Sequence record: SRR31156797_2545
Strand: one strand, 5' to 3'
Length of the DNA: 35,594 bases
Part shown: piece by piece, positions 4,380 through 20,871 of the stretch
Layout: each line of letters opens with the position of its first letter
Numbering within the stretch: the first letter of the stretch is position 1
Program-made: the position numbers and the translations under genes
The notes under the pieces: model-generated
What the model saw: the letters and a program-made list of their open reading frames with translations, nothing else
Told to the model about the DNA's origin: nothing
The model's database searches: none

Positions 4380-5561
4380 TTAAAACTCTTTGAGGGCTAT
4401 TATCGGCTGAATATTAGAAGCTCTCATTGCAGGATAGATACCAAAGATTACTCCTGAAAGTAGAGTGATAAGGATCCCTATTAAAAATGGCTCTAATGAA
4501 AATGCTATATAAAGATCAGTAAAAAGAAAAAGGATTATTAAAATGATATATCCAAATACTCCACCTATCATCCCTCCAACAAAAGCTAAAAAAGAGGTAT
4601 AGAGTAAGTAGTATCTTATGATTCTTTTTTTTGTAGCTCCCAAAGCCATTTTAAGTCCTATCTCCCTTGTTTGTTCATTGATATTAGAAAGTACAGCATT
4701 CATTACACTTATTCCACCAGTAAGAAGTGATAAAATAGCAATAGAGATCAAAATGATATTAAAAGTTTTTTGTGCCTCTTTCTCTTGATCTAAGATCTCT
4801 AAAGGGATACTAACTGTAAAGTTGTTGATATTAAAGTTCTCTGAGCTTATTTTATTTTTTAAAATATTTGCTAAAAGGGGAATATTTTGTTGATTTTTAA
4901 TAAATATATTGATCTGATCATAGATCTGGTTACTAAACTTTAAAGTACTATAGGGAACAAAAATAAAATTATTAAGATTATTTTTAATAGTACTGATCCC
5001 TACAACCTTATAAGTTGTACCATTAAAAACGATATTTTCATTGATCCCTATATTATATTTAAAGGCTATATCTTCACTGACTACTGCATTAAACCTATTA
5101 TTGTCTATATCATTTTGTAAAAGTGGCCTTCCTTTGATAACATCTAAATTCTCGATCAATAAAAAAACTTCATTTGAGCCTATCACTGAAGCAGTTGTAT
5201 CCCCTTTTTTTAAAAATATTGATTGATTTTTATCATGAATCATCATTGATGTATATCCATATTTATTAACAATACGCTCAATCAACTGATAATTTTTATG
5301 ACTTAATCCCTCAAAACGGTTTTTACTCATACTTGAAGCATTTGAAAATGGTTTATTGATTATTCTAATGGTATTGATCCCAAGATCTCTAATATTTTCA
5401 AGTGTTTTTTGTTTTGCCCCATTACCAATAGAGATCATTACAATAATGGAGACGATAAATATCATAATACCCATCACACTTAAAAGGGAATGGATCCATT
5501 TTTTTTTAAAATTATTAAAAGCACTTAAAACATCATAATGTAAAAAAGAGTGATATTTCAT
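4380..5561 (-). CDS. MacB-type ABC transporter permease (periplasmic core plus FtsX domain)
   Basis: SLLSVMGIMI TM1, large periplasmic domain, GGISVMNAVLSNINEQTREIGLKMALGA and GVIFGIYPAMRASNIQPIIALKE. Confidence 0.92.
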   Translation of the reverse strand: MKYHSFLHYDVLSAFNNFKKKWIHSLLSVMGIMIFIVSIIVMISIGNGAKQKTLENIRDLGINTIRIINKPFSNASSMSKNRFEGLSHKNYQLIERIVNKYGYTSMMIHDKNQSIFLKKGDTTASVIGSNEVFLLIENLDVIKGRPLLQNDIDNNRFNAVVSEDIAFKYNIGINENIVFNGTTYKVVGISTIKNNLNNFIFVPYSTLKFSNQIYDQINIFIKNQQNIPLLANILKNKISSENFNINNFTVSIPLEILDQEKEAQKTFNIILISIAILSLLTGGISVMNAVLSNINEQTREIGLKMALGATKKRIIRYYLLYTSFLAFVGGMIGGVFGYIILIILFLFTDLYIAFSLEPFLIGILITLLSGVIFGIYPAMRASNIQPIIALKEF

Positions 5562-6208
5562 TATAACTTCTCAATTTCAATAATTCGTGAACAATAGGTG
5601 ATCACCAAAGGATCATGGGTCACTATAACAACAGTTTTCCCCTCTTTTTCTACTAATTCTTTTAACATATCCAAGATCTGAATAGAGTTAGCTTCATCAA
5701 GGTTTCCTGTGGGTTCATCTGCAAAGATTATTTGAGGATCCATCACTAAAGCTCTAGCAATTGCAACTCTCTGTTGCTCTCCTCCTGAGAGGTATCTGAC
5801 TTCTTTATTTTCATAATGTTCTAAGCCAACTCGAACTAAAGAGTTTTTTACAATCGTATCTACAGATACTTCTGGAAAGTTTTTTCCATAATAAAAAGGC
5901 AAAGCTATATTCTCTTTGACATTCAAATGCATCAACATATTAGAATGCTGAAAAATAAAGCCAAACTTTTCATTTCTAATAGAAGCAACCTCTTCAGAGG
6001 AAAACTTTAAAAGATTTTCACCCTCAAATACTACCTCTCCACTATCTGGTAGATCCAATGTTGCTATAATTGAAAGAAGCGTTGATTTTCCACTTCCAGA
6101 GGGTCCAACTATTCCTAAAAATTCACCTTTGTTTACTTGTAAATCAAACTGATCAAATACAGTTTTTTGCTCATATGTTTTTACAATATTATTAAGTTCC
6201 AGAATCAT
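5561..6208 (-). CDS. MacB/LolD-type ABC transporter ATP-binding protein
   Basis: Walker A GPSGSGKST, LSGGEQQRVAIARAL, IFADEPTGNLD, VTHD. Confidence 0.95.
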   Translation of the reverse strand: MILELNNIVKTYEQKTVFDQFDLQVNKGEFLGIVGPSGSGKSTLLSIIATLDLPDSGEVVFEGENLLKFSSEEVASIRNEKFGFIFQHSNMLMHLNVKENIALPFYYGKNFPEVSVDTIVKNSLVRVGLEHYENKEVRYLSGGEQQRVAIARALVMDPQIIFADEPTGNLDEANSIQILDMLKELVEKEGKTVVIVTHDPLVITYCSRIIEIEKL

Positions 6209-7620
6209 TTTACGATAACAGTCTCATTCTCTTGTAATCCATCTAGGATTTCAGTATATTTCTCTCCCATTTTACCAATTGTGATATATTTTTTCTCTAT
6301 TGAGTCATTTTGCAATACTTCTACATATTCTGATTTTCCATCATAATTAATAGCATCATTAGGAACGGCAAGTGTATCAACTACTGTATCATAGATAATA
6401 TCAACATTTGCAGACATTCCTGAGCGAAGTATAGTCTCATTTTTATCCACCTTTATAATCGCATCAAAAAATTTTATATCTTTGATATCTTCATTTTTTT
6501 TAGCAACAATATCTATATAATCAAACTGTCCATAAAATAACTTTTCTGGATATGCATCTAATTGGATAATAACTTTTATATTACTATTTACTTTATTAAG
6601 ATCTATCTCTCTTATTTTTGTTTTTACAATCATATTTTTGGTATCTGGGATTTGGATAAAAGCTTGATTTCTCCAAATACTATCACCTATATTTACCTTT
6701 TCTTTTTTCCCATTTTTATGAAAAGTATTATAAAGGATCACACCATCAATTGGTGCACGTACATCACACGCTTCTACATTCTTTTTTGCTTGTTTCAGTT
6801 CAGACTCACAATAATCAATCACTGAAGCTGCTTTTTCCAATTGAGCCTGCTTAGTATCAAGCATAAACTTGTTTTGTACTCTTTTATTTACCAGTTCCTC
6901 TTCAAGATCTTTTAACATTATCTCTTGCTCTTTGATCTGTTTTGGCCAAGTATATTTTTGGTATGTTCCTAATCTTTCTCTTGCTGTTTCTAAAGCTTCT
7001 GTTGTATTGTGTTGTTTATTTTGAACTTCATCACGTTCACGTTTGCTTATATATCCTTTTTGATATAAGGAGTTATAATCTCGAAGCTCTTCATTTACAA
7101 GATCAAGCTTTCTCTCCTCTTGTAAAATCTTTTGTTTATATTCATTCAGTTTTACAACACCTTCTCCCAACTTAATATCTTGGAGTTTTATTTTAGCAAC
7201 CTCTATAGACTTTTTTAGTTTTTCAATACTCTCAACACTTTTATTTTCATGGATCTCTAGCTCTTTTTGCGCTTTAATATGAGCCGCTTTTGCTTCTTCT
7301 AACTGATATTTCCATTTTCCCATATCATCCACAAAAGCTTTTGTATCAAAACGTGCAATAATAGCCCCTTTTGTTACTTTTGTACCCTCAGGGATTAGTT
7401 CAACTATTTTTGCTCTATTTGATAAGATGGGAGATTTTATCTGCACAAACCTCGAAGCTTCTAAAGTTCCTCTTTGAGTGAGTTTAAGGTCAAAAGAGCG
7501 TTTTATCACCTTTTCATATTTATGATTTAACTGCTCCTCTTCCAAACTAAAAAAAGATATCACTAAAATAGCGATGATTATAAATGGTACGATTAATAAT
7601 AAGTTGTTTTTTTTATTCAT
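6205..7620 (-). CDS. MacA-like periplasmic adaptor (membrane fusion protein) with a long coiled coil
   Basis: N-terminal anchor, EGTKVTKGAIIARFD lipoyl half-motif, long helical hairpin, VRAPIDGVI, LRSGMSANVDI, LAVPNDAI, EILDGLQENETV. Confidence 0.9.
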   Translation of the reverse strand: MNKKNNLLLIVPFIIIAILVISFFSLEEEQLNHKYEKVIKRSFDLKLTQRGTLEASRFVQIKSPILSNRAKIVELIPEGTKVTKGAIIARFDTKAFVDDMGKWKYQLEEAKAAHIKAQKELEIHENKSVESIEKLKKSIEVAKIKLQDIKLGEGVVKLNEYKQKILQEERKLDLVNEELRDYNSLYQKGYISKRERDEVQNKQHNTTEALETARERLGTYQKYTWPKQIKEQEIMLKDLEEELVNKRVQNKFMLDTKQAQLEKAASVIDYCESELKQAKKNVEACDVRAPIDGVILYNTFHKNGKKEKVNIGDSIWRNQAFIQIPDTKNMIVKTKIREIDLNKVNSNIKVIIQLDAYPEKLFYGQFDYIDIVAKKNEDIKDIKFFDAIIKVDKNETILRSGMSANVDIIYDTVVDTLAVPNDAINYDGKSEYVEVLQNDSIEKKYITIGKMGEKYTEILDGLQENETVIVK

Positions 7621-8980
7621 ATATTCTCTTAATAAAATCTCTATCTAAATACCCTAAAGCTTTCACAAGTTTTAAAAATGCAATATTGTGACGAACCAAT
7701 TCATTCATATATTCCACTTGTGATTGGGAATACACTGCTTCAGCATCTAATATATCTAAGTTACTTGAAAGTCCACGATTATATCTAATTTGTGCAATCT
7801 CTAAAGAGTTTTTAGATTCTATCTGTTTTAGCTGATAAATCTCTAAATTCTCTTTTGTATTGAGATAATCATTTTTCAAGGCATTGATCTCTTTTAATAT
7901 CTCTCTTTGTAAAGCATCTTTATCTCTTTGAAGTCTATTAAGATATATCTTTGCCTTTTTATATTTTATATCTTGTGCTGTTGTATTAAAGTTATAATTG
8001 GAACTCACTCCCACACTCCATTGATTTTCATCAAAATCAAAGGAATCACTTAGCTGGGTTTCACTTGATTGAAAAGTATATCCAAGATCAAGTTCTAGAT
8101 CAGGTAAAAACTCTTTTTTGATATTATATAAATCCCTTTTTGAAAACCTTTCATTTAATAGCATCTCGTTCCATCGAAGGTTAAAGCCTAATAACTCCTC
8201 ATGTGAAACTTCTCGAACACCCTCTTTTATCACTTCTATATCACTTTTATTTATTACTTTTTTTGTATCTTGATTTATATAGTAATAGAGTTCATCTAAA
8301 GAGTCTTTGTGTTGTTTAAGAGTTTCTTTGAGGTTTTTCTTTTGATCTAAAAATGACAACTTTGCTCTATGTACATCTATTTTAGAAACAATTCCACTTT
8401 TATATTTTGCTTGTGCTGCTTTATAGTTTTTTTCTGCCCTACTTAAGGCTTGTTCCTGAATAGTTATCTTTGATTCACTTAAAGTATAGTTATAATATTT
8501 GACCACTGCTTTAATGATTATATCTGCTTCAGTATCAACTTTAATCAATTTAAATAGATCAAAGTTTTCTTTTGCTCTATCTAAAGAGTTTGTGTTATAT
8601 TGTTTTCCAAACTTTTGTAACAGTGCTTGCTTATATCCGATAGAAAACTTTGGAGTATATTGAGTATACTCATCATAATCAGATCGTTTTACTTCAAATT
8701 TATTGTATAAACTTCCACCATACTGATTCTTTTGATCTCTTTGTATTCCAAGAGAGAGAGTATTAGAATCATCATTGGCATTAAAATAAGAGCTTGGAGA
8801 ATAACTACTAGAAAACTTATTTTGTTGGAGCTCATAATCAAGCTTTAATGAGAGTTCATTATCATTAAGTAGTTTTGCGTCATTACTGTTTTCTAAAGAG
8901 AGTTGAATATATTGATTTAAAGAGAAAGAGAATAAAGTTGTGTGAATAAGGCAAATAAATATAATTTTATACAAAAGCAA
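7613..8980 (-). CDS. TolC-family outer-membrane efflux protein
   Basis: Signal peptide; the two outer-membrane-efflux repeat motifs AQAKYKSGIVSKIDV and AQIRYNRGLSSNLDILDAE; adjacent to MacA/MacB genes; TTG start. Confidence 0.9.
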   Translation of the reverse strand: MLLYKIIFICLIHTTLFSFSLNQYIQLSLENSNDAKLLNDNELSLKLDYELQQNKFSSSYSPSSYFNANDDSNTLSLGIQRDQKNQYGGSLYNKFEVKRSDYDEYTQYTPKFSIGYKQALLQKFGKQYNTNSLDRAKENFDLFKLIKVDTEADIIIKAVVKYYNYTLSESKITIQEQALSRAEKNYKAAQAKYKSGIVSKIDVHRAKLSFLDQKKNLKETLKQHKDSLDELYYYINQDTKKVINKSDIEVIKEGVREVSHEELLGFNLRWNEMLLNERFSKRDLYNIKKEFLPDLELDLGYTFQSSETQLSDSFDFDENQWSVGVSSNYNFNTTAQDIKYKKAKIYLNRLQRDKDALQREILKEINALKNDYLNTKENLEIYQLKQIESKNSLEIAQIRYNRGLSSNLDILDAEAVYSQSQVEYMNELVRHNIAFLKLVKALGYLDRDFIKRIYE

Positions 8981-9036: not shown

Positions 9037-10068
9037 CTATCTTGTCCATACACCTGTAAAGTAAGCATTATCTGCCGTAAATTCATTAGTTGACCCTGAT
9101 GCTGTTCCACTATAATCAGTTCCTGAAGAATAAATTAAAGTAAAATAACCATTATCTAAATCCCATGTACATGTTCCATGAGTTCCAGCATCACTTCCTT
9201 GTAAAGAAGTATAGCTACAAGTTTTATCACTACTTAATACATGTTCATATACCCAAAGATCTCCTGTACTATTTGTATAATTTGTGGTCCATGTTCCTAC
9301 TAAACTTGTGTATTGTGCATCAGTAATATTCACTTCTTGTTGTGTATCAGTTGTATCATCATGTGCATCACTATCACTAGAACTACTTCCTCCACCACCT
9401 GCAGCAGCTGCTCCTCCTGCTACTACAGCTACTCCTGCAACTGCTGCTGTTGTACTTATACCTGCTGATGTTGCTGCTACTGTTCCTGCTGATGTTGTCC
9501 CAGAGCTACTAGCTGCTGCGGCAGCTGATGTACTTGATCCTGTATTTAATCCTGCTACGATACCATATCTTGCAGCTGATTCTACTGTATCCAATGCAAT
9601 ATTATCAGTAAACCCTTGTACCATCTCTGGAGCTTTTGCAAGTTCTGTTTTTACTTGAATAACTCCATCACCTGATACATCTTGATATGCTGGTGTTTTT
9701 GAACCATTTTCAAGTGTTACTGCACTAAATGTTTGTGTTTTATACACTACGTTTGCACTATTTTTTACTAAGATAAGATAATCGATCCCTTTTGTCCCTG
9801 TTGACACTGCTGGAAGTGTTGCTGAGCATTCTGTTTTTTCACAGCTCATTGGAACAAATGAATAGTTAGCCACATCTGATGATTTAAAGTAAGTTCTTAC
9901 TACATCTACTCCTGCGTTATCTTCAACATTTGCATTTATCATAATTCTTTTTCCAGCTACTATCTCTTCAATAATTGGATCTAATTCAATATTTGCACTT
10001 ACATCTGCTAATAATGAACTTGCTGCTAAACTCACACACCCTAATGTTAATAATATTCTTTTTTGCAT
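9037..10068 (-). CDS. Secreted modular protein: Ig-like N-domain, Ala/Ser/Thr/Gly low-complexity linker, small beta-rich C-domain
   Basis: Signal peptide; beta-strand-patterned N-domain with a Cys pair; linker TTAAVAGVAVVAGGAAAAGGGGSSSSD; C-domain starting LVGTW with a Cys pair; AAGGA RBS. Confidence 0.7.
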   Translation of the reverse strand: MQKRILLTLGCVSLAASSLLADVSANIELDPIIEEIVAGKRIMINANVEDNAGVDVVRTYFKSSDVANYSFVPMSCEKTECSATLPAVSTGTKGIDYLILVKNSANVVYKTQTFSAVTLENGSKTPAYQDVSGDGVIQVKTELAKAPEMVQGFTDNIALDTVESAARYGIVAGLNTGSSTSAAAAASSSGTTSAGTVAATSAGISTTAAVAGVAVVAGGAAAAGGGGSSSSDSDAHDDTTDTQQEVNITDAQYTSLVGTWTTNYTNSTGDLWVYEHVLSSDKTCSYTSLQGSDAGTHGTCTWDLDNGYFTLIYSSGTDYSGTASGSTNEFTADNAYFTGVWTR

Positions 10069-10097
10069 AACTTATCCTTTTTATTTATATGATTTGA

Positions 10098-11615
10098 CTA
10101 TTTTAAATGCTTTTGTATCTCAGCATCAAGCACCTCACCATCCAACTGAATTACCACAGTGGCTTTTCCAGTTTTTTGATCATACTTCTCAGATAGTATC
10201 TCATATCCTGAGACTATATTTTTAGCATTTGTAGTGATTCTCATCATCACATCATCATTCATAAAATTACTATATTCAGATTGAACCACTTTTCCAAGTT
10301 TTTTTGCTAATGAATTCAATGCCATATTTGTAGCCATATTAATTGCCATTGCTTCATTCTGACTTTTAAAAGTCCCTTTTGCTGTTAAGTTTTTTGCTTT
10401 TGGAACAGATGTTGTTTGTACAGGAGCAACCTTTGGTGCACTTTTTGGTTTTGATGTTGCTAAAACTTTCTTTTTTGCAACTGGTTGTTGTTTTTGTACT
10501 GCTTGTTGTTTTGCTTTTAAAGCTCTTTCCACTGATGGGGTATAAAAGACATTAGCACTTCTATAATTATTATCAATAGGTACATTTATATATAACTCTT
10601 GAAATAATGGCAAAGTATCATAACCTGGAACTTTTGATTGGGCTTTAGCTTTATATTTATCAATCATCGCTTTTGTATTCTCATCTACTTTTCCAGTCAT
10701 GTCTGCATCATATCCATGAAGATATAAAGCATTTTGAATCATTGCGACTCTATCTTCTTGGTTAGCATTCATAAACTTTCTTGAAATAGATTCAACCACT
10801 ACATTATCAACTTTCCCATTAGGTAAGATTCTCCAGTATGGAAGATCTAAGTATCGTCCTATAATCTCTATAGTACTTAGTTCAACTAGCAATCTTACAG
10901 CAGCATGTCTTCCTTGAACTTTTTTTACATTACCATTGAGTCCAAAAGATATCGCAAGTATTGAAAACCCAATCTCGGATGAAGCAACTCCACTATTTAC
11001 GCTTACTGTATTTGAAGCACTCATTTTAGGAACCATCGCCCAAGTATCAAAGTCAATTAAACTCATATCTATAGTAATATTAGAGGTTGATGTCTTACTA
11101 TTGTCTCCAAAATCAAGTCCCACATTATTTCCATTGATAGAACCTTCTGCACCTAGATCACTCCCTTTTCCTCTTACATTAAGTGATCTATCAAACTCAG
11201 TAATTCCTCCAGAGATTACTAAAGTTGGGGTAATCTTATTTTTTCCAACTTTATACCCAAGGGCTTTCATATTACTAAAGTGAGCAGGATCATAATCTAC
11301 ATATTGGACTTTCCCTCCAATCTTATTGATCGCAGTTTTGATCATCTCAGTAATATCTACAGGGATCTCTCCACCTGTTGCCTGAGCAGTTCCTGTATCA
11401 TCTGTTACACCTTTACTTTGTATTTTAGTAGGACGTACAGAATATATATCTGTCATTCTTCCAAACACATCTAATGAAGCTGTATAGTTGGATACTTTTT
11501 TTTGTACTTTTTCTTCTTTTAACTCTACATCCACTTTTTGCGGGTTACCACATCCTGTGAAGGATAAAGCAAATAAACTGATTACCAAACAATATTTAAA
11601 AATTCTAGTAGTCAT
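10098..11615 (-). CDS. CsgG/HfaB-like lipoprotein with a peptidoglycan-binding domain and a C-terminal LPP20/FlgT-N-like domain
   Basis: Lipobox SFTG-C; GGEIPVDITEMIKTAI, VISGGITEFD and NITIDMSLID resemble the CsgG core; RVAMIQNALYLHGYDADMTGKVDENTKAMI resembles PG_binding_1; Lys/Pro/Ala linker before the C-domain. Confidence 0.72.
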   Translation of the reverse strand: MTTRIFKYCLVISLFALSFTGCGNPQKVDVELKEEKVQKKVSNYTASLDVFGRMTDIYSVRPTKIQSKGVTDDTGTAQATGGEIPVDITEMIKTAINKIGGKVQYVDYDPAHFSNMKALGYKVGKNKITPTLVISGGITEFDRSLNVRGKGSDLGAEGSINGNNVGLDFGDNSKTSTSNITIDMSLIDFDTWAMVPKMSASNTVSVNSGVASSEIGFSILAISFGLNGNVKKVQGRHAAVRLLVELSTIEIIGRYLDLPYWRILPNGKVDNVVVESISRKFMNANQEDRVAMIQNALYLHGYDADMTGKVDENTKAMIDKYKAKAQSKVPGYDTLPLFQELYINVPIDNNYRSANVFYTPSVERALKAKQQAVQKQQPVAKKKVLATSKPKSAPKVAPVQTTSVPKAKNLTAKGTFKSQNEAMAINMATNMALNSLAKKLGKVVQSEYSNFMNDDVMMRITTNAKNIVSGYEILSEKYDQKTGKATVVIQLDGEVLDAEIQKHLK

Positions 11616-11640: not shown

Positions 11641-11958
11641 TTATTCACTTATTGTTGTTATATCACCTTTATTTTCTTGGATAATATAAATATCGCCAGC
11701 CTTACCACCTATCATATTAACGCCGCCAATATTTGTACCACCGATAGCACCATCGTCTGTGATTACAGTATCACCATTCTCTATATTATTTTGAGCTTGA
11801 GCTTTTGCTTTTCTCATAATGAACTTAACGTTAATATCTTTTTGCAGATCATTCCCTGTACTGATACCATCTTCAGTACCCATTCCATCATCCAAGTCTC
11901 CAGATATTGCCGATGAGACTATAAAGAATAATCCCACCAGCCATAATAAAGTTTTCAT
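11641..11958 (-). CDS. Small secreted protein (acidic N-terminus, Gly/Ile/Asn-rich C-terminus), possible adaptor or nucleator
   Basis: Signal peptide MKTLLWLVGLFFIVSSAISG; 2 bp from the repeat-protein gene; C-terminal NIGGVNMIGGKAGDIYIIQENKGDITTIS. Confidence 0.7.
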   Translation of the reverse strand: MKTLLWLVGLFFIVSSAISGDLDDGMGTEDGISTGNDLQKDINVKFIMRKAKAQAQNNIENGDTVITDDGAIGGTNIGGVNMIGGKAGDIYIIQENKGDITTISE

Positions 11959-11960
11959 AA

Positions 11961-12245
11961 CTATTTTACTTTAACACTACCAACATTTTGTTCAGCTCTA
12001 TTTCCAAATCCAGATGCCACGTTTCTTACATCTTGAGCTTTACCTCTAATATAGATATATTCAACAGTTCCACCTTCTCCTACTTCCATAGAATGAACAT
12101 TTTGTTCAGCAGTATTCATAGTACCAGTCGCCATATTTGATGCATTTTTTACATCAGAATCAATTATAACCCCTTTTGCACTTCCTGCAAAAGCACTCCC
12201 TGCAACCATCGCACTTACGATTAAACCTAAAGCTAACTTTTTCAT
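11961..12245 (-). CDS. Small secreted tandem-repeat protein, candidate major amyloid/fibre subunit
   Basis: Signal peptide ending AFA; the mature 74 aa are 38+36-aa repeats, both containing N-x-A-[ST]-G-x2-N-x-AEQNV-x-S-x2-V; strong RBS AAAGGAGA. The gene is secure; the function is inferred. Confidence 0.75.
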   Translation of the reverse strand: MKKLALGLIVSAMVAGSAFAGSAKGVIIDSDVKNASNMATGTMNTAEQNVHSMEVGEGGTVEYIYIRGKAQDVRNVASGFGNRAEQNVGSVKVK

Positions 12246-12320
12246 GACATCTCCTTTGTTTTAACTTAAACTAATTATTTCATATATACATTTAAACCTT
12301 ACTTAATTTTCTATAATTTG

Positions 12321-12350
12321 TTTACTAATCGTTTACTAACTATTTACTAA
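12321..12350 (-). promoter_or_regulatory. Triple direct repeat TTAGTAAA at 11-bp period upstream of the repeat-protein gene
   Basis: TTTACTAA on the + strand starting at 12321, 12332 and 12343. Confidence 0.6.
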
Positions 12351-12757
12351 TTACTTATCTGTATCACATTAGCTATGACACGAGCATGACTTTTGATGAT
12401 CTTCTGCTTCAAATCTAAAGGTTGAATTTGATCTAGATCATAAACAGTGACATTTTGATCAGAAAAAGTGATCTTTTTATACTCAGCTTGTATATCAGTT
12501 TTTTTATTATATATTTTCAAAAATACTGATATATCTCTTCTTTCATTATTACTATTGATCAATACTTCTATAGGAAGATACACTTCTACATTACAATTCT
12601 CTTCACTATTCATGAAAGTTTGTAATCCTTTACTTTGAAGCTCTACCATAATAGGTAAAATGATATGTTCATTTTTAGAATTTTTAAAATTGATACACTC
12701 TTTTGCACCTAATATACTTACAAATATCAAAATAATTATAGTTATACTTTTCATCAC
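12347..12757 (-). CDS. Exported hypothetical protein
   Basis: Hydrophobic signal peptide, Cys pair, coupled to the upstream gene; the start may be the ATG at 12754. Confidence 0.65.
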   Translation of the reverse strand: MMKSITIIILIFVSILGAKECINFKNSKNEHIILPIMVELQSKGLQTFMNSEENCNVEVYLPIEVLINSNNERRDISVFLKIYNKKTDIQAEYKKITFSDQNVTVYDLDQIQPLDLKQKIIKSHARVIANVIQISN

Positions 12758-14703
12758 TATTTCACCATTGAGATATTCATAAAATAATCTGTTGCTTCAT
12801 TTACATCAAAATTAAATCTATTTTTTTCCAGTTCATCCATCACATCATCAACTGTTACACCTAAAAATGATGTTTGTACTACCAAATGTACTTTTCCTTT
12901 ATTCCCTTTAGTTTTTTTCCACTTCCCAGCATCTTTTACATCTAAGATCTCTTTTTGTGCTTTGAGTACCTTTTTCACTTTCCTTAGATCTCTATAAGAG
13001 ATATCATTGAATTGAATCTCGATCTCTCTAATTTCCCCTAAAAGATATTTTGGAATATCCCAAACTACTTTTGAGCTAATAGCCTGAGCACTTTTTTTAA
13101 TTGCATTCTCTCTTGCTGTTAATTGATCATCTAAAAGGGAAAAAGATTGAGCTTGTTCATTATATATACCTACTGTTTTTCCACTTCCTGGCATTAATAC
13201 TTTTGAGTTAATAGATGCTGTGACCAATTTTCCACTTACATCTGAAACCTCACTTCTTGATAAAGCATACACAATATTTCCACTTACAACTATATCAGCC
13301 CCTGCTTCTCTCGCAAACTCTATAGCTGCTCCACCTATTCCTCTTCTTGCTTTTAATATTCTCTCACTATCTACAATATTTCTATTGGCAAGATCATCAG
13401 ATGTGGTTACATCATATCCATACTCTTTAAGAGTTTTTGCCAAAGAAGTTTCAATTGATCGAATCTGCATCTCGTCTTTTTTAGGAATATACTTCTCAAT
13501 TGAGTTTGATTTTTGTATGGTCTTTTCAACTAATTGTTCTTCAGAATATCTCTCTTGCCCAAAAACAATAAGTACTTTAGGAGTTCCTAACATCTCTACA
13601 AATGTTTTTAATCCATTTGCAAAACTAAAATCATGTACCTCTTTATCAGCTACACAAGCTTTCATCAAAACTTCAAAGGTTCTTTTATTTTTTTCTCTCT
13701 CACTTAAAATATCATAATAAGTGATAAACCCTTTTGCCTTCTTATTGATCACACTATACACTTGTGACATACTTTGGGTCATTTTTGCTTGTGTAAAATC
13801 TTCTATATGAACTCCAGCCCCTTTACTTACTGCATTTCTATATGCATCCATAGTTGCTCTTTGTTTTGCTATATATAGACCTTTTTCTAAGCCTCCAAGC
13901 CCTGTGCTCTCAATCCATTTTCCAGGGCAATTTTCTGAGTTAGATTGCTGAGCTAATAAAGAGAATGGATCTTTTGGCTTTTCTTTTACAACTGTTTTTT
14001 TGGAAGCTTTTTCTTTAGCAGCTTTTTGGGCACTTTTTTCTCTTGTTTCATAGACATATGATTTTTGTTGTAAATAGTTTTTACTTTTCGAAGATAATTC
14101 AGGCAGACCATCTGCTACTAGTTTTGCTATACCATTTTCTAAAGCCATTGCTAAAGCTTTATTTGGAAGCTCTCCAGTGGGATTACCACTTGCCCCAAAA
14201 CCTAGTGATTGAGTGAGTTTTTTACTCGCTTCACCTTCTGAACTTACTGTTGTTAGAAGCTCATTTGTTAAAGCATCTTTTATCATTAGATTTACTTTTA
14301 CTTTTACCACTTGCTTTTTTGATTTAGAAAATGCTCCAGTTGAAAACTCTGTATCATCACTAAATGAAGGGATAGAGACCACTAAAAAATAATCAACTGA
14401 TAAAAGATCTTTTAGTCTTGATCTTTGTTGTTCACTATCTTGAAGATCTGCCCACTCTATTTTATTTCGCTCGATCACTTCTTTTAAACGTTGCCAATCT
14501 AATACATTAAAACAACGAGTTTGTTTTAATGCAACTGCAGCTTCACTTTGAATACCAGATGTGTTATAAACTAATCTTGCTGTTTTATTTGTTATTTCAA
14601 CATCTGTAACGCCAATTAGTCCTTCATAAGTTGTAGTACATAAAGAAGCCATTATACTACTTGATAAAAAAACTATTAATAAAAATTGTTGTAACACTCT
14701 CAT
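12757..14703 (-). CDS. Multidomain exported protein: CsgG-like domain, FlgT-N/LPP20-like domain, second alpha/beta domain, C-terminal domain
   Basis: ALKQTRCFNVLDWQRLKEVIE...VDYFLVVSIPSF...VKVNLMIKDALTNELL...SEGEA follows the CsgG/HfaB pattern. AKQRATMDAYRNAVSKGAGVHI...AKGFITYYDILSE is FlgT-N-like. LKEYGYDV...AREAGADIVVSGNI repeats the TolB-N/CsgG-type fold. Confidence 0.7.
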   Translation of the reverse strand: MRVLQQFLLIVFLSSSIMASLCTTTYEGLIGVTDVEITNKTARLVYNTSGIQSEAAVALKQTRCFNVLDWQRLKEVIERNKIEWADLQDSEQQRSRLKDLLSVDYFLVVSIPSFSDDTEFSTGAFSKSKKQVVKVKVNLMIKDALTNELLTTVSSEGEASKKLTQSLGFGASGNPTGELPNKALAMALENGIAKLVADGLPELSSKSKNYLQQKSYVYETREKSAQKAAKEKASKKTVVKEKPKDPFSLLAQQSNSENCPGKWIESTGLGGLEKGLYIAKQRATMDAYRNAVSKGAGVHIEDFTQAKMTQSMSQVYSVINKKAKGFITYYDILSEREKNKRTFEVLMKACVADKEVHDFSFANGLKTFVEMLGTPKVLIVFGQERYSEEQLVEKTIQKSNSIEKYIPKKDEMQIRSIETSLAKTLKEYGYDVTTSDDLANRNIVDSERILKARRGIGGAAIEFAREAGADIVVSGNIVYALSRSEVSDVSGKLVTASINSKVLMPGSGKTVGIYNEQAQSFSLLDDQLTARENAIKKSAQAISSKVVWDIPKYLLGEIREIEIQFNDISYRDLRKVKKVLKAQKEILDVKDAGKWKKTKGNKGKVHLVVQTSFLGVTVDDVMDELEKNRFNFDVNEATDYFMNISMVK

Positions 14704-14711: not shown

Positions 14712-15377
14712 TCACTTTAATTCTATTGCTTGTCCTAATAGATCATCAACAACAACTTCATTAGGACCTTTTGGAAAATCTTTTAAAAGATTTTGAGCCA
14801 CTGCTTTAATTGCCTTTATATGTTTATCTGATTCTCTATTGGCAAGAATATTAAATACAATATTAAATGGATCAAAAGCTAATCTTCTTTTTGCAACTCT
14901 CTCAGAGAGGTCATACCATACAGTATCACCATTTCTAAGTTGTAGTTTTAAAGACGCAGTAAAAGCAAAACCACTATACACTGCTGCATCTTGAACATTT
15001 GCTGTTTCTATGATCCCTGAGAGTATTGCATCTGCAGATGTCATTTGGGCAAGCTTATCAAAACTCAGCAGTCTTAAATGATCTGCTTTTTGAATACCCA
15101 CATCCATAAGTGCTTTATCTAAAATCTCTTTATCAATTACCGCATACCCTTGCATAGATAATATATCATTGATATGTTGTCTAAAATAGTAAGGAAGATT
15201 TGGATACATAGTCATATTTTGAATAGGTAAAACAGCAATCTTAAAAGTACTTACTGTTTTGATCTTCTCTTTGAAAACCTCATCAATAAAACTTTTTCGT
15301 ATCTCTTCTTCTGCATTAAGAGAAATAGATAAAAAAGAAAACAACAATAAAATTAGTTTTAAAGATCTACTTAACAT
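14712..15377 (-). CDS. DUF799/GNA1162-like exported protein
   Basis: IAVLPIQNMT...LSMQGYAVI...DKLAQMTSADAILSGII...TASLKLQLRNGDTVW pattern; this family is commonly encoded next to CsgG-like genes. Confidence 0.7.
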   Translation of the reverse strand: MLSRSLKLILLLFSFLSISLNAEEEIRKSFIDEVFKEKIKTVSTFKIAVLPIQNMTMYPNLPYYFRQHINDILSMQGYAVIDKEILDKALMDVGIQKADHLRLLSFDKLAQMTSADAILSGIIETANVQDAAVYSGFAFTASLKLQLRNGDTVWYDLSERVAKRRLAFDPFNIVFNILANRESDKHIKAIKAVAQNLLKDFPKGPNEVVVDDLLGQAIELK

Positions 15378-16014
15378 TGATTTGTCCTACCTCTGTTGTT
15401 GTTGTGCTCCAACCTCCAGAAGATACGGTATTAACATTTTCTGTTTTTCCTTTGATCATTATATTTCCAACTTCTGCATCTGATTCAACATTTACTGTGC
15501 CAATATGAATATGACTATTTTCATTTGTAGAATGATGGTAGATATTTTTAGTTTTTGTTTGAACTGTAATATCTTTACTCTCATCTACATGATAATGTTC
15601 CTCTGCAGGTTCTTCTACTTTGTTATAGTGATCTTTTAATCTTTGTTTGTAGAACTTTGAATTATATTTATAATCATCAAATTTTTCAGTTTGTTTTTTC
15701 TTTTTTTCTTCGAGAAGCTGTTTTGTTGTTTTCACACGTGATATTTTATTATTCAACATAATATCACTCATCTTCTGAGTAGATTTTTGAGTGATATTAT
15801 AATTAAATCCATTATTAAAAATTATTTTAGCAGTTGTATAAGATCGTGTGTAGATGGTATCATTTTCATGAAGTTGCAATCCATTGAAACCTTTTAATAG
15901 TTTCCCATTTCTTAAAACATATACTTCACCATTGATATAACCAAATTTAGCGACGTTATATTCTGCTTGTAAATAACCAATTAATAAAAGCAATGAAAAG
16001 AATGTCTTCTTCAT
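15367..16014 (-). CDS. Secreted protein: truncated FecR-like N-domain, Lys-rich linker, C-terminal two-repeat module
   Basis: INGEVYVLRNG...LHENDTIYT...AKIIFNNG resembles the first half of a FecR domain. The C-terminus AEVGNIMIKGKTENVNTVSSGGWSTTTTEVGQINVK aligns with the repeats of 11961-12245 and 16643-17560. Confidence 0.72.
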   Translation of the reverse strand: MKKTFFSLLLLIGYLQAEYNVAKFGYINGEVYVLRNGKLLKGFNGLQLHENDTIYTRSYTTAKIIFNNGFNYNITQKSTQKMSDIMLNNKISRVKTTKQLLEEKKKKQTEKFDDYKYNSKFYKQRLKDHYNKVEEPAEEHYHVDESKDITVQTKTKNIYHHSTNENSHIHIGTVNVESDAEVGNIMIKGKTENVNTVSSGGWSTTTTEVGQINVK

Positions 16015-16026: not shown

Positions 16027-16533
16027 TCATTGTAAATAGTTTGCTTTTAAATGCCTAGCTATTGCATAGCTTGCAGCATCTATTGCACTTTCATTCACCA
16101 TTTTTTGAGTTGGGAACAACCAATATTCAACATCAATATTGATATGATAATAACCAATCTCTTTGTTATTATTATCTAAGATTGTGAATAAAACTTCAAA
16201 TTGGCTATTATCTTTTCCAAAATAGGTACCAAAGTCTGTCAAATGCTTTTTCATTTTTAAGGTATTTAAAATTTCATATTTGAGCTTTAACTGATCTCCT
16301 GGAATGAAATTTTCACTATTTTCTTCGCTGTATAACTTTTTAAACAGGTCATCTTCAAGCTGATCAAGAAACTCATTAGGAACTATCTTGTTTTGGTTTC
16401 CCTTAACAAGTTCTAGAGTACTAAACTGGTTTACACTTTTATAAGTTTTCACCGTTTTAACATTTTGAACAGTTGAACCACAACCAACCAGCATACCAAT
16501 TAAGAATGCCAATGACAATATTCTACTAAACAT
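16027..16533 (-). CDS. Lipoprotein (DUF4410-like), first gene of the leftward operon
   Basis: Lipobox LVG-C; RBS AAGGAGG; alpha/beta pattern ending in the helix AIDAASYAIARHLK. Family call is tentative. Confidence 0.62.
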   Translation of the reverse strand: MFSRILSLAFLIGMLVGCGSTVQNVKTVKTYKSVNQFSTLELVKGNQNKIVPNEFLDQLEDDLFKKLYSEENSENFIPGDQLKLKYEILNTLKMKKHLTDFGTYFGKDNSQFEVLFTILDNNNKEIGYYHINIDVEYWLFPTQKMVNESAIDAASYAIARHLKANYLQ

Positions 16534-16642: not shown

Positions 16643-17560
16643 ATGTTTGTAAAACTTTTTATTTATTTATCATTAACTTTTGTCTATCTCTATTCTAATT
16701 CTGGCATCTTAATGCCTATCAAAGGTAAAGTCTCTTTAATACGAGATAGTAACCACCTTGAAGTGGTATCTAAAAAAGTCCTTCAAGAAGGGGATATAAT
16801 AGAAACATTCAATAATTCAGTAGCTAAATTACATTTTAGAGATAATACTCAAATAACTATTGGAAAAAACTCAAAATTTGCAATAAATGAATACTTATAT
16901 CAGGATAAAAAAACAAAAGCAGACTTTTCTGTTTTACAGGGAAGTTTTAAAGCGATCACTGGAAAAATATCAAAGCTTGCACCTGATAAATTTAAACTAA
17001 AACTTAAAAGTGCGAGTATAGGGATAAGGGGTACCGAATTTTATGGTGCTACTACTTCAAAAGATACTGAGAAAATCTTTTGTACAAAAGGTGCGATTTC
17101 TGTACAATCAAAAAATAAATTTAATCTCTCAGCAGGCTTTATGACTACTAATACTAATGGTACTCTCTCCAAACCAGAAAAGTTTGATAATAAAGCAATT
17201 GAAATTTTTGAACAAGAAAACTTTAACTTGAATAATACTACTATATATACAGACACAACTAGTGCTAATGTAGAACAAAATGGGATATCAAACACTACAG
17301 TTCAAACAAATGAGACAGATGGTTCAACAGGTAATGGAAAGGGATCAAATATTATTATCGATTCAAATGTAAAAAATATCCAAAATATTGTCAATGGATC
17401 TAATAATAGTTCAGAACAAAACATACATTCAACGATCATTTCAAATCGTGGAGAAGTGGAATATATCTATATAAAAGGGAAAGCAGAAGATGTATCAACT
17501 GTTATTTCAGGTTCAAATAATGCAGTAAAAACATCCATTGGAACTGTAGATGTTGAATAA
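16643..17560 (+). CDS. FecR-domain protein with a Thr/Asn linker and a C-terminal copy of the two-repeat module
   Basis: LQEGDIIET...AKLHFRDNTQITIGKNSKF...GSFKAITGKISK...ASIGIRGTEF is a typical FecR domain. The last 74 aa align without gaps to the mature 11961-12245 protein (35/74 identical by my count). Confidence 0.88.
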   Translation: MFVKLFIYLSLTFVYLYSNSGILMPIKGKVSLIRDSNHLEVVSKKVLQEGDIIETFNNSVAKLHFRDNTQITIGKNSKFAINEYLYQDKKTKADFSVLQGSFKAITGKISKLAPDKFKLKLKSASIGIRGTEFYGATTSKDTEKIFCTKGAISVQSKNKFNLSAGFMTTNTNGTLSKPEKFDNKAIEIFEQENFNLNNTTIYTDTTSANVEQNGISNTTVQTNETDGSTGNGKGSNIIIDSNVKNIQNIVNGSNNSSEQNIHSTIISNRGEVEYIYIKGKAEDVSTVISGSNNAVKTSIGTVDVE

Positions 17561-18641
17561 TACTTTTTATATAGAAGATGAATGGGAATACCACTCTTTA
17601 GAAACACATATCAATTCACTTGATACATTCTTTGAAAAAACAAATACTATTCAAGAAATAGTATTTAATTTTTCAAAACTCAAAAAAATAGACTCCTCAG
17701 GGATGGTTTTACTTATTAGATATATAAACCTTTTTAAACACAAAAATGTAAAAGTAAAGATAGAAGAGATCTCTGAAAAATATCAAAGTATGTTAGAACT
17801 GTATGAAGAAAACTATACTCATAAAGACTATACACCAGTAAAATCAGATAAAACCTTTTTATATGAAGTGGGAGAGGGTGCATCTTCTTACATTGAAGCT
17901 ACCAAGAACTTCCTTACTTTTATAGGAAAAGTTTTTATTATGTTCTTATACTCATTAAAACATCCTAGTAAGATTAGACTTAAAGCGACTATTGCTCAGA
18001 TGGATATAGCTGCAATTCAAATCCTTCCTATTACAGCTCTTGCTCTTTTTCTTGTAGGGTTTGTAACAGCCTATCAAGGAGCAGAACAGCTTGCAGGTTT
18101 TGGGGCATCTATTATTGTTATTGAGATGTCTACCATGGCTATGTTTCGAGAACTAGCTCCTTTTTTAGCTGCCGTTATTGTAGCAGGTCGTAGTGCTTCT
18201 TCCTTTACTGCTCAAATTGGAACTATGAAGATCACTGAAGAGGTAAGTGCCATGAAAACAATGGGCTTAGAAGTGGATCACTTTTTATTTATCCCAAGAA
18301 TTGTAGCTCTTATTATTGTGATGCCTTTAATTGTTTTCTTTGCAGATATGGCAGCAATGCTTGGAGAGATGGTTATCGTAAAAATCCATCTTGGGATTCC
18401 CTTTTCACAATTCATCGATAGAGTTTATGAATATATGGAGATACGACATATCCTTTTAGGAATTTTAAAAGCTCCTCTTTTTGGGCTTCTTATTGCGATC
18501 ATTGGATGCTACAGAGGGATGCAGGTACAAAAAGGGACAGATATTGGAAGATATACAACAAAAGCCGTTGTGGACTCTATTTTTTGGCTTATTATAATTA
18601 ATGCTATTATCTCTCTTCTTTCTATTAAGCTAGGGTTTTAA
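17550..18641 (+). CDS. mlaE: MlaE-family lipid ABC transporter permease with an N-terminal STAS domain
   Basis: FSKLKKIDSSG STAS motif; RELAPFLAAVIVAGRSASSFTAQIGTMKITEEVSAMKTMG. Confidence 0.92.
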   Translation: MLNNTFYIEDEWEYHSLETHINSLDTFFEKTNTIQEIVFNFSKLKKIDSSGMVLLIRYINLFKHKNVKVKIEEISEKYQSMLELYEENYTHKDYTPVKSDKTFLYEVGEGASSYIEATKNFLTFIGKVFIMFLYSLKHPSKIRLKATIAQMDIAAIQILPITALALFLVGFVTAYQGAEQLAGFGASIIVIEMSTMAMFRELAPFLAAVIVAGRSASSFTAQIGTMKITEEVSAMKTMGLEVDHFLFIPRIVALIIVMPLIVFFADMAAMLGEMVIVKIHLGIPFSQFIDRVYEYMEIRHILLGILKAPLFGLLIAIIGCYRGMQVQKGTDIGRYTTKAVVDSIFWLIIINAIISLLSIKLGF

Positions 18642-18642
18642 G

Positions 18643-19371
18643 ATGATAAAAGTAAATAATCTTTCTACCTCATTTGGCAAAAAAGTTGTCCATGATAGTA
18701 TCTCTTTAGAGATTGAACAAGGGGAGATCTATGGAATACTAGGAGGGAGTGGGAGTGGAAAAACCACACTACTTCGACAAATGATCATGCTAGATCCTAT
18801 CCAAAAAGGGGAGATCGATATCTTAGGATATAATATCTCAAAACTAAAATATAAAGAGCGTGATCTGATAAAAAAACAATGGGGAATCCTTTTTCAATTT
18901 GGAGCGCTTTTTTCTTCTCTGAATGTATTAGAAAATATCGGGTTTTTATTGAAAGAGAATAGTAAATTACCACAAAGTTTAATTGATGATATTGCCTATA
19001 CGAAACTAAAAATGGTAGGTCTTGATCCTGATGTAGGAAGACTTTATCCTGAAGAGCTTAGTGGTGGGATGAAAAAACGTGTGGCAATTGCTAGAAGTTT
19101 GGCACTTGATCCAAAAATTCTATTTTTAGATGAACCAACTTCAGGACTAGATCCAGTAAGTGCTAAAGCTTTTGATAATCTTATATTAGAACTTCGTGAT
19201 ATGCTTGATATCACTGTTGTAGTAATCACCCATGAACTTAATACTATAAAATCTGTTCTAGATAGGTTTTGCATCATATATAAAGGTGACCTTCTAATGA
19301 CTGGGGACTTCAATGATGCTTTAAATCAAAATAATGATATAATTGATAAGTTTTTAAAAATTCAAAGGTAA
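18643..19371 (+). CDS. mlaF: MlaF-family ABC ATPase
   Basis: GGSGSGKTT, LFQFGALFSSLNV, YPEELSGGMKKRVAIARSLALDP, DEPTSGLDP. Confidence 0.92.
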   Translation: MIKVNNLSTSFGKKVVHDSISLEIEQGEIYGILGGSGSGKTTLLRQMIMLDPIQKGEIDILGYNISKLKYKERDLIKKQWGILFQFGALFSSLNVLENIGFLLKENSKLPQSLIDDIAYTKLKMVGLDPDVGRLYPEELSGGMKKRVAIARSLALDPKILFLDEPTSGLDPVSAKAFDNLILELRDMLDITVVVITHELNTIKSVLDRFCIIYKGDLLMTGDFNDALNQNNDIIDKFLKIQR

Positions 19372-19376
19372 TCGAG

Positions 19377-20282
19377 TTGGAAAATAAAGCACGTTATACA
19401 ATTGTTGGTCTTTTTTTAGTTCTCTTTAGTGTTGCTATGGTGATGTTTATCTTATGGCAAGCAAGATATACATTTGAAGAGCAAAAAAAATATGAATATA
19501 GACTTTATAGCACCTCGAGTGTAGGTGGACTTAAAGTAAACTCTTTTGTAGAATATAAAGGGTTAACTATAGGAACAATAGATGCTATAGATATTGATCC
19601 TAATAATACTGAGAATATAGAGATTATTTTAAAGGTCACTAATCCAAAAGTTATCAAAGAAAATAGTTATGCAACGATTCAATCTCAAGGGATCACTGGA
19701 AATAAATATATAGAGATAGATGGGGGAACTGATAGTGCAACCTCCCTTATTCCAAAAGAGGATAGTTTTATCATTATTCCTTTACAAGATTCTTTTTTAG
19801 ATACCCTTACCAGCGAAGCTGGAGATATCACTAAAAACATCAATAAAACTCTTAATAATGTGAATATGCTTTTAAATCCTGAAAATATAAAAAAGATTAA
19901 TCAGATTCTTCATAATGTACAAGATAGTACTAATTCAATTGAGCCTTTATTTGATAATCTCAATACAACGATCACACACCTTAATACTCTTTTAGAAAAA
20001 AATGCTCCAAATACACTCAAAGGAGTTGATACAGTAACAGAAGAATGGACAGATTTAGCTTTGCAGATCAAAACCTTACTCAACGAAGATATTAAAAAAC
20101 TTTTAGCTCTTACAAGCAAAACTTTACAAGAGAGCTCAGGTATAGAAAATGTGATCACAAATATCGATACCACTTTAGAAAAAGTCAATTCAACTCTTGA
20201 TACTCTGAATGAAAATGGTGGAGATATGATCTTTAAAACAAGAGGAATAAAATATGGACCACAGGAGCATATAGATGAATAG
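19377..20282 (+). CDS. mlaD: MlaD/MCE-domain protein
   Basis: MENKARYTIVGLF TM; SVGGLKVNSFVEYKGLTIG MCE motif; QGITGNKYIEI; helical tail. Confidence 0.9.
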   Translation: MENKARYTIVGLFLVLFSVAMVMFILWQARYTFEEQKKYEYRLYSTSSVGGLKVNSFVEYKGLTIGTIDAIDIDPNNTENIEIILKVTNPKVIKENSYATIQSQGITGNKYIEIDGGTDSATSLIPKEDSFIIIPLQDSFLDTLTSEAGDITKNINKTLNNVNMLLNPENIKKINQILHNVQDSTNSIEPLFDNLNTTITHLNTLLEKNAPNTLKGVDTVTEEWTDLALQIKTLLNEDIKKLLALTSKTLQESSGIENVITNIDTTLEKVNSTLDTLNENGGDMIFKTRGIKYGPQEHIDE

Positions 20283-20871
20283 ATTACATACTTTAGTTTT
20301 TATACTTATTAGCTTTATATTTAGTGGATGTGTTTCTGTTACCCAAGAACTCCCAGCTTTTACAACCTATACTATCTCTTTAGAAAAGAGTGATCTAAAA
20401 ATGGAAGAAAGAAATAAAAAAGAATACTCTATAGAGATCACTGAACCAAAGGCTTTAAATAGTGTAAATTCAAAACTTATATCTTATCTAAAACAAAACT
20501 ATCAAAATGAAACCTATGCGTTAAATAGATGGAGTGATACCCCAACTAAACTCCTACAAAATATGATGGTACAATATTTAAACTCCACGGATCAATACAA
20601 ATATATCACTAGTTCTAAACTTAATATCAACACAAGCTATAAAATAATTAGTGAACTTGATAGTTTTGGACAAGTTTTTGAAAATGGCACTTCCTATGCA
20701 AAACTTGATATAAGAGTTTATCTAGTAGATTATAAAAATGTATTCACCAAAAGGTTTGAATATAAAGAAAAATGTGATGAAAATAATGCAGTTGGTTCTG
20801 TAAAAGCTTTAAATGAGATCTCTAATCTATTTGTAAAAGATCTTCATAACTGGATAGAAAAACAACTCTAA
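20275..20871 (+). CDS. ABC-type transport auxiliary lipoprotein (PqiC-like)
   Basis: Lipobox FSG-C; YALNRWSDTPTKLLQ motif; located directly after the MCE gene. Confidence 0.85.
   Translation: MNRLHTLVFILISFIFSGCVSVTQELPAFTTYTISLEKSDLKMEERNKKEYSIEITEPKALNSVNSKLISYLKQNYQNETYALNRWSDTPTKLLQNMMVQYLNSTDQYKYITSSKLNINTSYKIISELDSFGQVFENGTSYAKLDIRVYLVDYKNVFTKRFEYKEKCDENNAVGSVKALNEISNLFVKDLHNWIEKQL

Follow-up and report, generated by a model that had tools for sequence, protein, structure and literature searches.

We examined a 35,594-nucleotide (nt) stretch of DNA from sequence record SRR31156797_2545, hereafter the window, with a focus on a small gene, p94, and the genes for a small secreted protein, p105, and a lipoprotein, p505, that follow it. 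The p94 gene (11961..12245, minus strand) runs from an ATG start through 94 amino acids (aa) plus a stop codon. An earlier note, made from the letters alone, had described its product as a signal peptide followed by two repeats, and the coordinates and translation are exactly as quoted there. The signal peptide (residues 1-20; 12186-12245, minus strand) is typical of Sec export and ends in ...GSAFA; residues A20 and G21 do not vary across 15 aligned homologs. The mature protein, 74 aa in length, is made up of repeat R1 (residues 21-58, 38 aa; 12072-12185, minus strand) and repeat R2 (residues 59-94, 36 aa; 11964-12071, minus strand), which abut without a linker. All residues that the note had listed as in register between the repeats (N17, A19, G21, N24, AEQNV at 26-30, S32 and V35) are present in both, and G1 and I8 can be added to them. 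A sequence count likewise bears out the absence of Pro and Cys from the mature chain; p94 carries 8 basic and 8 acidic residues. Self-comparison of p94 at an offset of 38 gives 13 identities over 36 positions, whereas every other offset from 20 to 49 gives 0-8, and at least 13 identities at any offset from 15 to 49 were reached in 16 of 20,000 shuffles of the mature sequence.

A Shine-Dalgarno sequence, AAGGAG (12251..12256, minus strand), stands 5 nt before the p94 ATG and also precedes the p94 orthologs of two metagenome-assembled genomes (MAGs) of Campylobacterota, L001 and L002, in agreement with the strong ribosome binding site reported earlier. We found 14 homologs of p94, 87-94 aa long and 55-79% identical, and a ratio of nonsynonymous to synonymous substitution rates (dN/dS) of ~0.13-0.25 against the L001 and L002 orthologs, with dS near saturation; on these grounds p94 is a real gene under purifying selection. 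The upstream intergenic region noted earlier is a 101-nt gap, the widest in the gene row; a scan for promoters and terminators near p94 stayed at chance level (38 promoter consensus sites, 38.3 expected), so no promoter of its own was recognized. Within this gap we also observed three direct copies of TTTACTAA at 11-nt spacing (12321..12350, plus strand), an array that gives 2 overlapping pattern matches as compared to 0 in 100 shuffles. The copies are absent from the shorter L001 and L002 gaps, and the array may be a putative regulator binding site.

Searches of Pfam and NCBIfam returned nothing above threshold for p94. The earlier note had read a hybrid Fap/CsgA signature into the repeats and had proposed a search with curlin and Fap hidden Markov models. 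In Pfam, Curlin_rpt matched neither p94 (E ≤ 1), nor any of 41 family members (E ≤ 0.1), nor any of six long homologs described below; Fap models likewise matched neither p94 nor the six long homologs, and Fap or DUF3060 models matched 0 of the 41 members (E ≤ 0.1). Aligned by hhalign, the p94 family profile reached 9.2% against Escherichia coli CsgA and 1.4% against CsgB, in both cases through the signal peptide only. The sequence GFGNNA is indeed present in repeat 5 of E. coli CsgA, as had been stated alongside an NVAAGxGNQQxN motif given for FapC repeats of ~39 aa. Because only G79 of the GFGN in p94 is invariant across its family (F80, G81 and N82 vary) and no profile match was found, the hybrid signature is a short G-x-G-N-x-A turn motif that offers no evidence of membership. 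A curlin assignment was also rejected on geometry, with a period of 38 aa (~36 in the long homologs) and four AlphaFold2 strands per repeat as compared to the ~23-aa strand-arc-strand of curlin. By these sequence comparisons p94 does not appear to be a curlin or Fap member. The family analogy of the earlier note is thus motif-deep, and the wider finding is the cassette around p94.

Other resources were similarly uninformative as to identity. A search of PDB sequences with the p94 family profile returned only designed helical repeat proteins (E 0.001, no significant stretch), and the ESM Atlas placed p94 among unnamed clusters of ~100 aa with no common Pfam family and a single 'putative DUF3060' label, a family that Pfam did not match in p94 or its relatives. 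NCBI names for the L001 and L002 orthologs of the genes at this locus are all 'hypothetical' except for DUF799. The best Pfam match of p94 was Ntox22 (PF15527), at E 0.0031-0.0058, and 12 of the 41 family members give weak Ntox22 matches too, the best with an E of 0.0031 and 18 bits, which raises the alternative that p94 is a small toxin-like domain or else a chance open reading frame (ORF) with a compositional repeat. All of these scores, including the 17.1-18 bits of p94, fall below the gathering cut-off of 25 bits, and we rejected the assignment. Neither a delivery domain nor an immunity-gene context was seen, and the Sec signal peptide, purifying selection and cross-phylum conservation in a fixed cassette (see below) also speak against this alternative, which we regard as extremely improbable.

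We then considered p94 as part of a larger repeat family. A narrow p94 profile searched against 1.84 billion representatives (E ≤ 0.001) recovered 40 clusters, including stand-alone two-repeat proteins of ~95-120 aa, ~300-aa proteins with a FecR-type domain and a C-terminal module, ~212-aa proteins and a few multi-repeat proteins. Inspection suggests that two large matches, P0043 and P0049, are false. The narrow profile misses long-repeat relatives that a broader profile recovers. The proteins so recovered consist of a signal peptide and 2 to ~12 near-identical repeats of ~36 aa, with nothing else; their repeat consensus is roughly VKGAIINKSNVxNAANVAIGxGNxANMGSVxIxGS, relative to which each p94 repeat has a two-residue insertion. 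The members inspected stop at the last repeat, with no cap segment. Two-repeat forms occur in Desulfovibrionales as well, for example as a 98-aa protein in L017. Neither Pfam nor NCBIfam held a family for the six long members or for four p105-type proteins; pentapeptide-repeat matches on long homologs were below threshold, and a CsgE sum-score on the repeat protein of locus L076, without a significant stretch, was taken as a repeat artefact. In p94 we see the minimal member of an unannotated but widespread family of secreted proteins made solely of tandem 36-38-aa repeats, which probably stack into surface fibers.

Two members of the family merit separate mention. The cultured isolate Geomonas sp. 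Red32 (L020, 3221-4471, plus strand) encodes, in the subunit position, an extremely Asn/Gly-rich protein of 416 aa with ~11 repeats. The p94 profile missed this protein at E ≤ 0.001, so profile counts given here are lower bounds. In a Desulfovibrio MAG (L004), two distinct two-repeat p94-type genes (7317-7598, minus strand; 9857-10321, plus strand) flank the p105/p505 pair, and this could be an arrangement of a major and a minor subunit. Our literature search, which covered the main text of openly available papers, found no description of the repeat family or of the cassette. A secreted solenoid subunit of imperfect repeats with a CsgG-type partner is already known as an idea; the novelty lies in the repeat family and the size of its rung, in p105, and in how p505 is built.

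Structure prediction was in line with a repeat solenoid. With an alignment of 17 sequences, AlphaFold2 modeled p94 at a predicted local distance difference test (pLDDT) score of 69.7; with 41 sequences, the best model of the mature chain was a two-rung beta-solenoid at pLDDT 78.3 and a predicted template modeling score of 0.57. Its predicted strands at residues 6-12, 15-20, 25-30 and 33-35 of the mature chain recur at 44-50, 53-58, 63-68 and 71-73, and both models contain the same four strands twice. Foldseek searches of the PDB with both models gave no row at E ≤ 0.001, and the weak rows are beta-helices and amyloid fibrils.

The earlier note had proposed that the cap-less two-repeat chain stacks head to tail and that several copies should be predicted together, and the predicted models are in line with this. 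ESMFold2, given four copies of residues 21-94, returned a score of 0.63 (runs 0.65, 0.63 and 0.61) as compared to 0.01 for the best of three controls. In a calibration that applies to four copies only roughly, 21 of 30 proteins solved as same-chain pairs scored this high, and none of 23 solved as single chains did. The runs shared at least 98% of contacts, with partner pLDDT of at least 83. In the interface, residues 55-94 of one copy rest on residues 21-56 of the next, and the lowest-error pairs (66-28, 87-49, 83-45, 75-37 and 79-41) have the register i/i-38. Because the interface register is that of the internal repeat, the four-copy model can be described as a continuous predicted solenoid. 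Memory of a homologous complex is unlikely to lie behind it, since p94 has no solved relative by sequence.

Downstream, p105 (11641..11958, minus strand) starts 3 nt past the p94 stop and encodes a small secreted protein. Four parts are common to proteins of this type: the signal peptide, a GDLDDGI motif that looks invariant, a basic stretch (NIKFI..AKSKA) accompanied by a G/S linker, and the segment GNMNSVVxGxGSxVxGDIxIIDxSKGD at the C-terminus. Although p105 matched no Pfam or NCBIfam family (none in NCBIfam at E ≤ 1), hhalign joined the p105 and p94 families at 92.5% (E 4.9e-7, 24 columns), with the C-terminal segment of p105 aligned across the boundary at which R1 ends and R2 begins. By this alignment p105 carries about one inter-rung junction of the subunit, and we propose it as a putative nucleator or anchor. 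In the ESM Atlas p105 falls in an unnamed 'lipoprotein family' cluster; the nearest named cluster is HfaA (0.76), which serves as a lead only.

The next gene, p505 (10098..11615, minus strand), encodes a lipoprotein with an N-terminal lipobox, an N-terminal domain of ~330 aa that is distantly CsgG/HfaB-like, a weak peptidoglycan-binding motif and a weak LPP20-like region fused at the C-terminus. Its match to the NCBIfam HfaB model (NF037935) has an E-value of 4.3e-5 and 22.8 bits as compared to an equivalog cut-off of 300; with 14-23 bits among p505 and its homologs, an assignment as HfaB equivalog was rejected. A 12-member p505 profile aligned with E. coli CsgG at 68% (hhalign, E 4.7e-5, 172 columns, lipobox included), and Pfam CsgG was matched at E ≤ 0.01 by six of the 12 family members (best 3.6e-4). 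We propose p505 as a putative outer-membrane export and anchor component.

A genome scan with the 12-sequence p505 alignment yielded 206 loci, of which 80 were used for gene-order counts. The N-terminal ~330 aa of p505 has 558 homologs, and their C-termini are variable (DUF4384, TPR or peptidoglycan-binding). The 80 loci come from MAGs or isolates labeled Desulfobacterota, Nitrospirota, Gammaproteobacteria and Campylobacterota, and the order conserved in most of them is repeat protein, ~110-aa GDLDDGI protein (p105-type), CsgG/HfaB-like lipoprotein (p505-type). In 68 of these loci (71 by BLAST cluster) the p505-type gene is immediately preceded by a p105-type gene. An ORF matching the p94 profile stands farther upstream, in the same orientation, in 54 of the 80; among the 59 loci whose upstream sequence spans 1.5 kb or more, 45 have one. 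BLAST clustering places repeat proteins at 68 of 80. By tblastn, L001 and L002 are syntenic with the entire gene row of the window and L006 retains the p105- and p505-type genes, while L004 keeps just its p94-type genes and homologs of p105 and p505 (the latter 42% identical over 328 aa). Same-strand downstream genes in the 80 loci encode an LPP20-like lipoprotein (57), two small proteins (46 and 36), a DUF2807 beta-helix protein (34) and an HtrA-type protease (18). All told, the cassette occurs in at least 206 species genomes, among them sulfate reducers, metal reducers, Nitrospirota, Gammaproteobacteria and Campylobacterota. Candidate carriers in culture are Geomonas, Citrifermentans bremense, Desulfuromonas thiophila and Desulfobacula phenolica.

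Some loci showed peculiarities of their own. A p105 and p505 pair occurs on a 2396-bp low-coverage contig (L068) binned as a Promethearchaeota archaeon MAG, and the archaeal label likely reflects a mis-binned bacterial contig. Seven of the 80 loci, L059 (901-2772) among them, encode a sigma-54 activator that has FHA and GAF domains, at a distance of ~4 kb upstream from the cassette. A more distant Campylobacterales locus (L010, 4173-4945) keeps the genes for p648, DUF799, a 149-aa ORF, p105, p505, p343, TolC, HlyD and ABC proteins, the 149-aa ORF standing in place of p136.

Several of these last genes belong to the row upstream of p94. Directly upstream lies p136 (12347..12757, minus strand), which encodes a small secreted protein without a Pfam family; its homologs are restricted to L001, L002 and L009, and it was seen in Campylobacterota only. 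Next come p648 (12757..14703, minus strand), a large envelope protein whose N-terminus holds a CsgG domain (40.3 bits in Pfam, cut-off 20.8; BLASTP against E. coli CsgG, E 3e-5, 24% over 179 aa) and that beyond close relatives was found only in L010, and p221 (14712..15377, minus strand), a GNA1162-like (DUF799) lipoprotein (Pfam, 32.8 bits, cut-off 25.9) whose L001 ortholog is named by NCBI as a DUF799 family lipoprotein. The product of p215 (15367..16014, minus strand) has a weakly FecR-like N-terminus and, at its C-terminus (~15370-15600), a diverged two-repeat module 23% identical to p94; similarly shaped proteins of ~212 aa are matched by the family profile (P0032, P0033, P0039 and P0046). 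The minus-strand row is headed by p168 (16027..16533, minus strand), a lipoprotein with the lipobox ...LVGC, no Pfam family and an ortholog in L001. Beyond Campylobacterota, p648, p221, p215, p168 and p136 stand outside the cassette.

On the other strand, p305 (16643..17560, plus strand) encodes a secreted FecR-domain protein (Pfam FecR, 50.6 bits), similar to p215 by BLASTP at E 0.007. Its last ~74 aa (17336-17557) are a paralog of the whole mature p94, at 47% identity, and the same fusion of FecR and module recurs in P0017, P0018, P0044, L003 and L017. At its end p305 overlaps an Mla-like set (17550-20871, plus strand) of MlaE with an N-terminal STAS domain, an ABC ATPase, an MlaD protein and an ABC_trans_aux lipoprotein; p305 may belong either to that set or to the divergent fiber row.

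On the far side of p505, the minus strand (4380..8980) encodes a MacB-like permease, an ABC ATPase, an HlyD-like adaptor and a TolC-like outer-membrane factor, as recognized by Pfam. The set is syntenic in L001, L002 and L010, and we propose it as a putative export route, either alternative or additional. The gene p343 (9037-10068, minus strand), inserted between p505 and the TolC-like gene, encodes a secreted protein of no family with a long Ala/Ser/Gly/Thr-rich tract; it has this position here and in L010, not in L001 or L002, and a short N-terminal match to it was found at the L001 contig end.

These export genes bear on a second alternative, namely that the family consists of monomeric surface beta-helix proteins (adhesins, or mineral-, ice- or polysaccharide-binding proteins) whose length depends on the number of repeats; p94 would be a degenerate short form, and export might use a MacB/HlyD/TolC-type route in place of a CsgG-like pore. 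The synteny within Campylobacterota fits such a reading, as do the ice-binding proteins and SV2 luminal pentapeptide domains among the weak Foldseek rows, the sub-threshold pentapeptide matches of long members, and the adhesin-head DUF2807 beta-helix protein encoded at 34 of 80 loci. However, among loci that are not close relatives, a TolC-like gene is found in five and an HlyD-like gene in three, whereas p105 and p505 are nearly universal. Moreover, a solenoid of 74 aa that has two rungs and is open at both edges would probably not be stable by itself, and no member inspected has a capping segment. We consider this alternative decidedly unlikely.

Given these results, we lean modestly toward the reading that p94 is a fiber subunit, with CsgG-like export and anchoring and with p105 as nucleator or anchor. 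Sequence and models together would give the following picture. Each repeat would form one rung of a beta-solenoid, built of three to four short strands, and the chain would start at its first strand and end at its last, such that the bottom of R2 could template R1 of the next molecule. Because neither end of p94 is capped, monomers could add head to tail into an amyloid-like fiber. After Sec export, p94 would cross or dock at the outer membrane by way of p505, whose peptidoglycan-binding and LPP20-like parts would be built into the machinery. The GDLDDGI part of p105 may hold it at the channel, where its junction-like edge would template or anchor the first subunit, a role akin to that of CsgB/CsgF or FapB/FapE. 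With the module behind a FecR-type domain, p305 and p215 might co-assemble with the fiber as adaptors or terminators. The repeat, its family, the conserved gene order, the homology of p105 to the repeat junction, and the fold and stacking as predicted are what the analysis shows; we infer the export route, polymerization and the roles of p105, p305 and p215. The subunit role put forward in the earlier note is upheld to the extent that homologs of 2 to ~12 repeats occupy the same place in the conserved cassette, beside CsgG-type lipoprotein genes, and the role therefore fits; its further description there as a major and abundant subunit is putative.

Several observations weigh against this reading, chief among them the weak CsgG kinship of p505 and the absence of p94 from the otherwise syntenic L010. 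A look through sequencing runs listed no RNA run that contains the locus. Against Pfam CsgG (PF03783), p505 scored 15.6 bits (E 0.01), below the cut-off of 20.8, and the HfaB model gave 15.5 and 14.2 bits, against 300, on p505 homologs of two other genomes. A profile of four p505 sequences reached 1.4% only with CsgG by hhalign, BLASTP found nothing, and the p505 family profile found no CsgG chain among PDB sequences. Owing to the last three results and the low HfaB scores, we treat p505 as a distant candidate for the CsgG/HfaB superfamily, not as a member. Pfam found no CsgE, CsgF or CsgC among 10 locus proteins. At the level of gene order, 26 of the 80 p505 loci have no p94-profile match upstream, in part through truncation or blindness of the profile (as at L020), and L010 has no p94-type gene between its 149-aa ORF and p105. 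As for the models, one of five AlphaFold2 models from 41 sequences is confident, the remaining four having pLDDT of 53-62; predictors have a general tendency to stack chains of the solenoid kind, and complexes had been calibrated for two copies, not four.

Some of the same observations fit a third alternative, in which p94 would be a non-polymerizing part of an envelope lipoprotein complex with p505, p648, DUF799 and LPP20-like proteins, for example as a periplasmic plug, spacer or adaptor that binds p105 by way of the rung-like segment they share. The lipoproteins of L010 without p94 and the lack of CsgE/CsgF-type accessory matches at the locus are compatible with it, as is the tight coupling of p94 to lipoprotein genes with peptidoglycan-binding and LPP20-like parts; the single junction segment shared by p105 and p94 would equally allow a 1:1 complex. 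Yet 2 to ~12 homogenized repeats without any other domain would be unusual for a stoichiometric part and are typical of fibers and adhesins. The cap-less ends of the p94 family and the homotypic head-to-tail model, at 0.63 as compared to 0.01 for controls, also speak against this alternative. We consider a complex of this kind unlikely.

Curli and Fap are the only two secreted functional-amyloid systems of Gram-negative bacteria understood in both structure and biogenesis, and the genome survey of a 2025 review rests on these two (PMC12822426). A broader proposition, which we hold tentatively as possible rather than probable, is that the p94/p105/p505 cassette represents a third, phylogenetically broad bacterial functional-amyloid system beside them, with a 36-38-aa repeat fold of its own. 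Its nucleator-anchor would be p105, in which a mimic of one subunit junction is joined to a GDLDDGI docking motif; its translocon would be a divergent CsgG/HfaB-like one with peptidoglycan and LPP20-type anchoring built in; and its cargo display would be modular, through FecR-type domains fused to a two-rung 'fiber plug' (p305, p215). If so, p94, with two rungs in 74 aa, would be the smallest solenoid subunit known to stack on itself naturally in bacteria. Should such fibers form, they would add a rung geometry and a logic of nucleation that are both new, help explain the biofilm matrices of sediment and mat organisms, and provide a 74-aa two-rung building block for structural work and materials. 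The fusions of FecR with the module suggest that domains may be displayed naturally on such fibers.

Among known systems, the prion-forming domains of the fungal HET-s and HELLF have two pseudo-repeats of ~21 aa that form a two-rung solenoid, with a fungal NLR partner; they belong to cytoplasmic, eukaryotic signaling proteins, and their likeness to p94 is one of architecture only; identity over aligned residues is 2% for the mature p94 model and 18% for the first model. The holdfast anchor of Caulobacter (HfaA, HfaB, HfaD) offers a parallel in gene order, with the gene of a small secreted protein directly upstream of that of a CsgG-like lipoprotein, and HfaB is the model that p505 matches best in NCBIfam. 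Unlike in that system, the window showed neither HfaD nor genes for holdfast polysaccharide. To our knowledge, the Hfa system has no tandem-repeat subunit of the p94 kind. The proposed mechanism has a parallel in the HfaA-HfaB gene pair (PMC6707917).

With Fap, p94 shares a repeat length in the range of ~35-40 aa and a multi-strand layer: the review describes FapC repeat layers of ~35-40 aa, multi-stranded and stacked as a solenoid stabilized by Asn/Gln ladders (PMC12822426). It also describes a Greek key and long flexible linkers between FapC repeats (PMC12822426), whereas the p94 repeats abut without linkers. The first Foldseek row was a FapC fibril (9nqd), at a non-significant E of 0.93. 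For the role of p105, the FapB and FapE described there provide a parallel (PMC12822426). Because Pfam found no Fap-family match on 20 window proteins around the locus, neither a FapF-type barrel nor a FapD protease was recognized among them.

A further comparison is with curli. Curlin repeats measure 23 ± 5 aa, and each forms one beta-arch of the strand-arc-strand type in which motifs a and b read N/S-x-psi-x-psi-x-Q (PMC10192328). In contrast, the p94 repeat has 36-38 aa and three to four strands per rung, and p94 is without an N22-like targeting segment; p505, at roughly double the size of CsgG and with additional domains, resembles it only distantly. Both systems have a Sec-exported subunit that contains nothing but imperfect repeats in which Asn, Gln, Gly and Ala are abundant, and p94, with its predicted in-register beta-solenoid with open ends, resembles curli in this respect as well. 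Both also have the G-x-G-N-x-A turn, with GFGN-A common to p94 and CsgA repeat 5. Repeat number differs between species in both families, the curli range being given as 4 to 62 repeats (PMC10192328). Finally, lipoproteins of the CsgG superfamily are encoded alongside p94 (clearly in the case of p648, distantly in that of p505), and a second small protein, p105, carries a piece of the repeat in a manner comparable to the curli nucleator CsgB.

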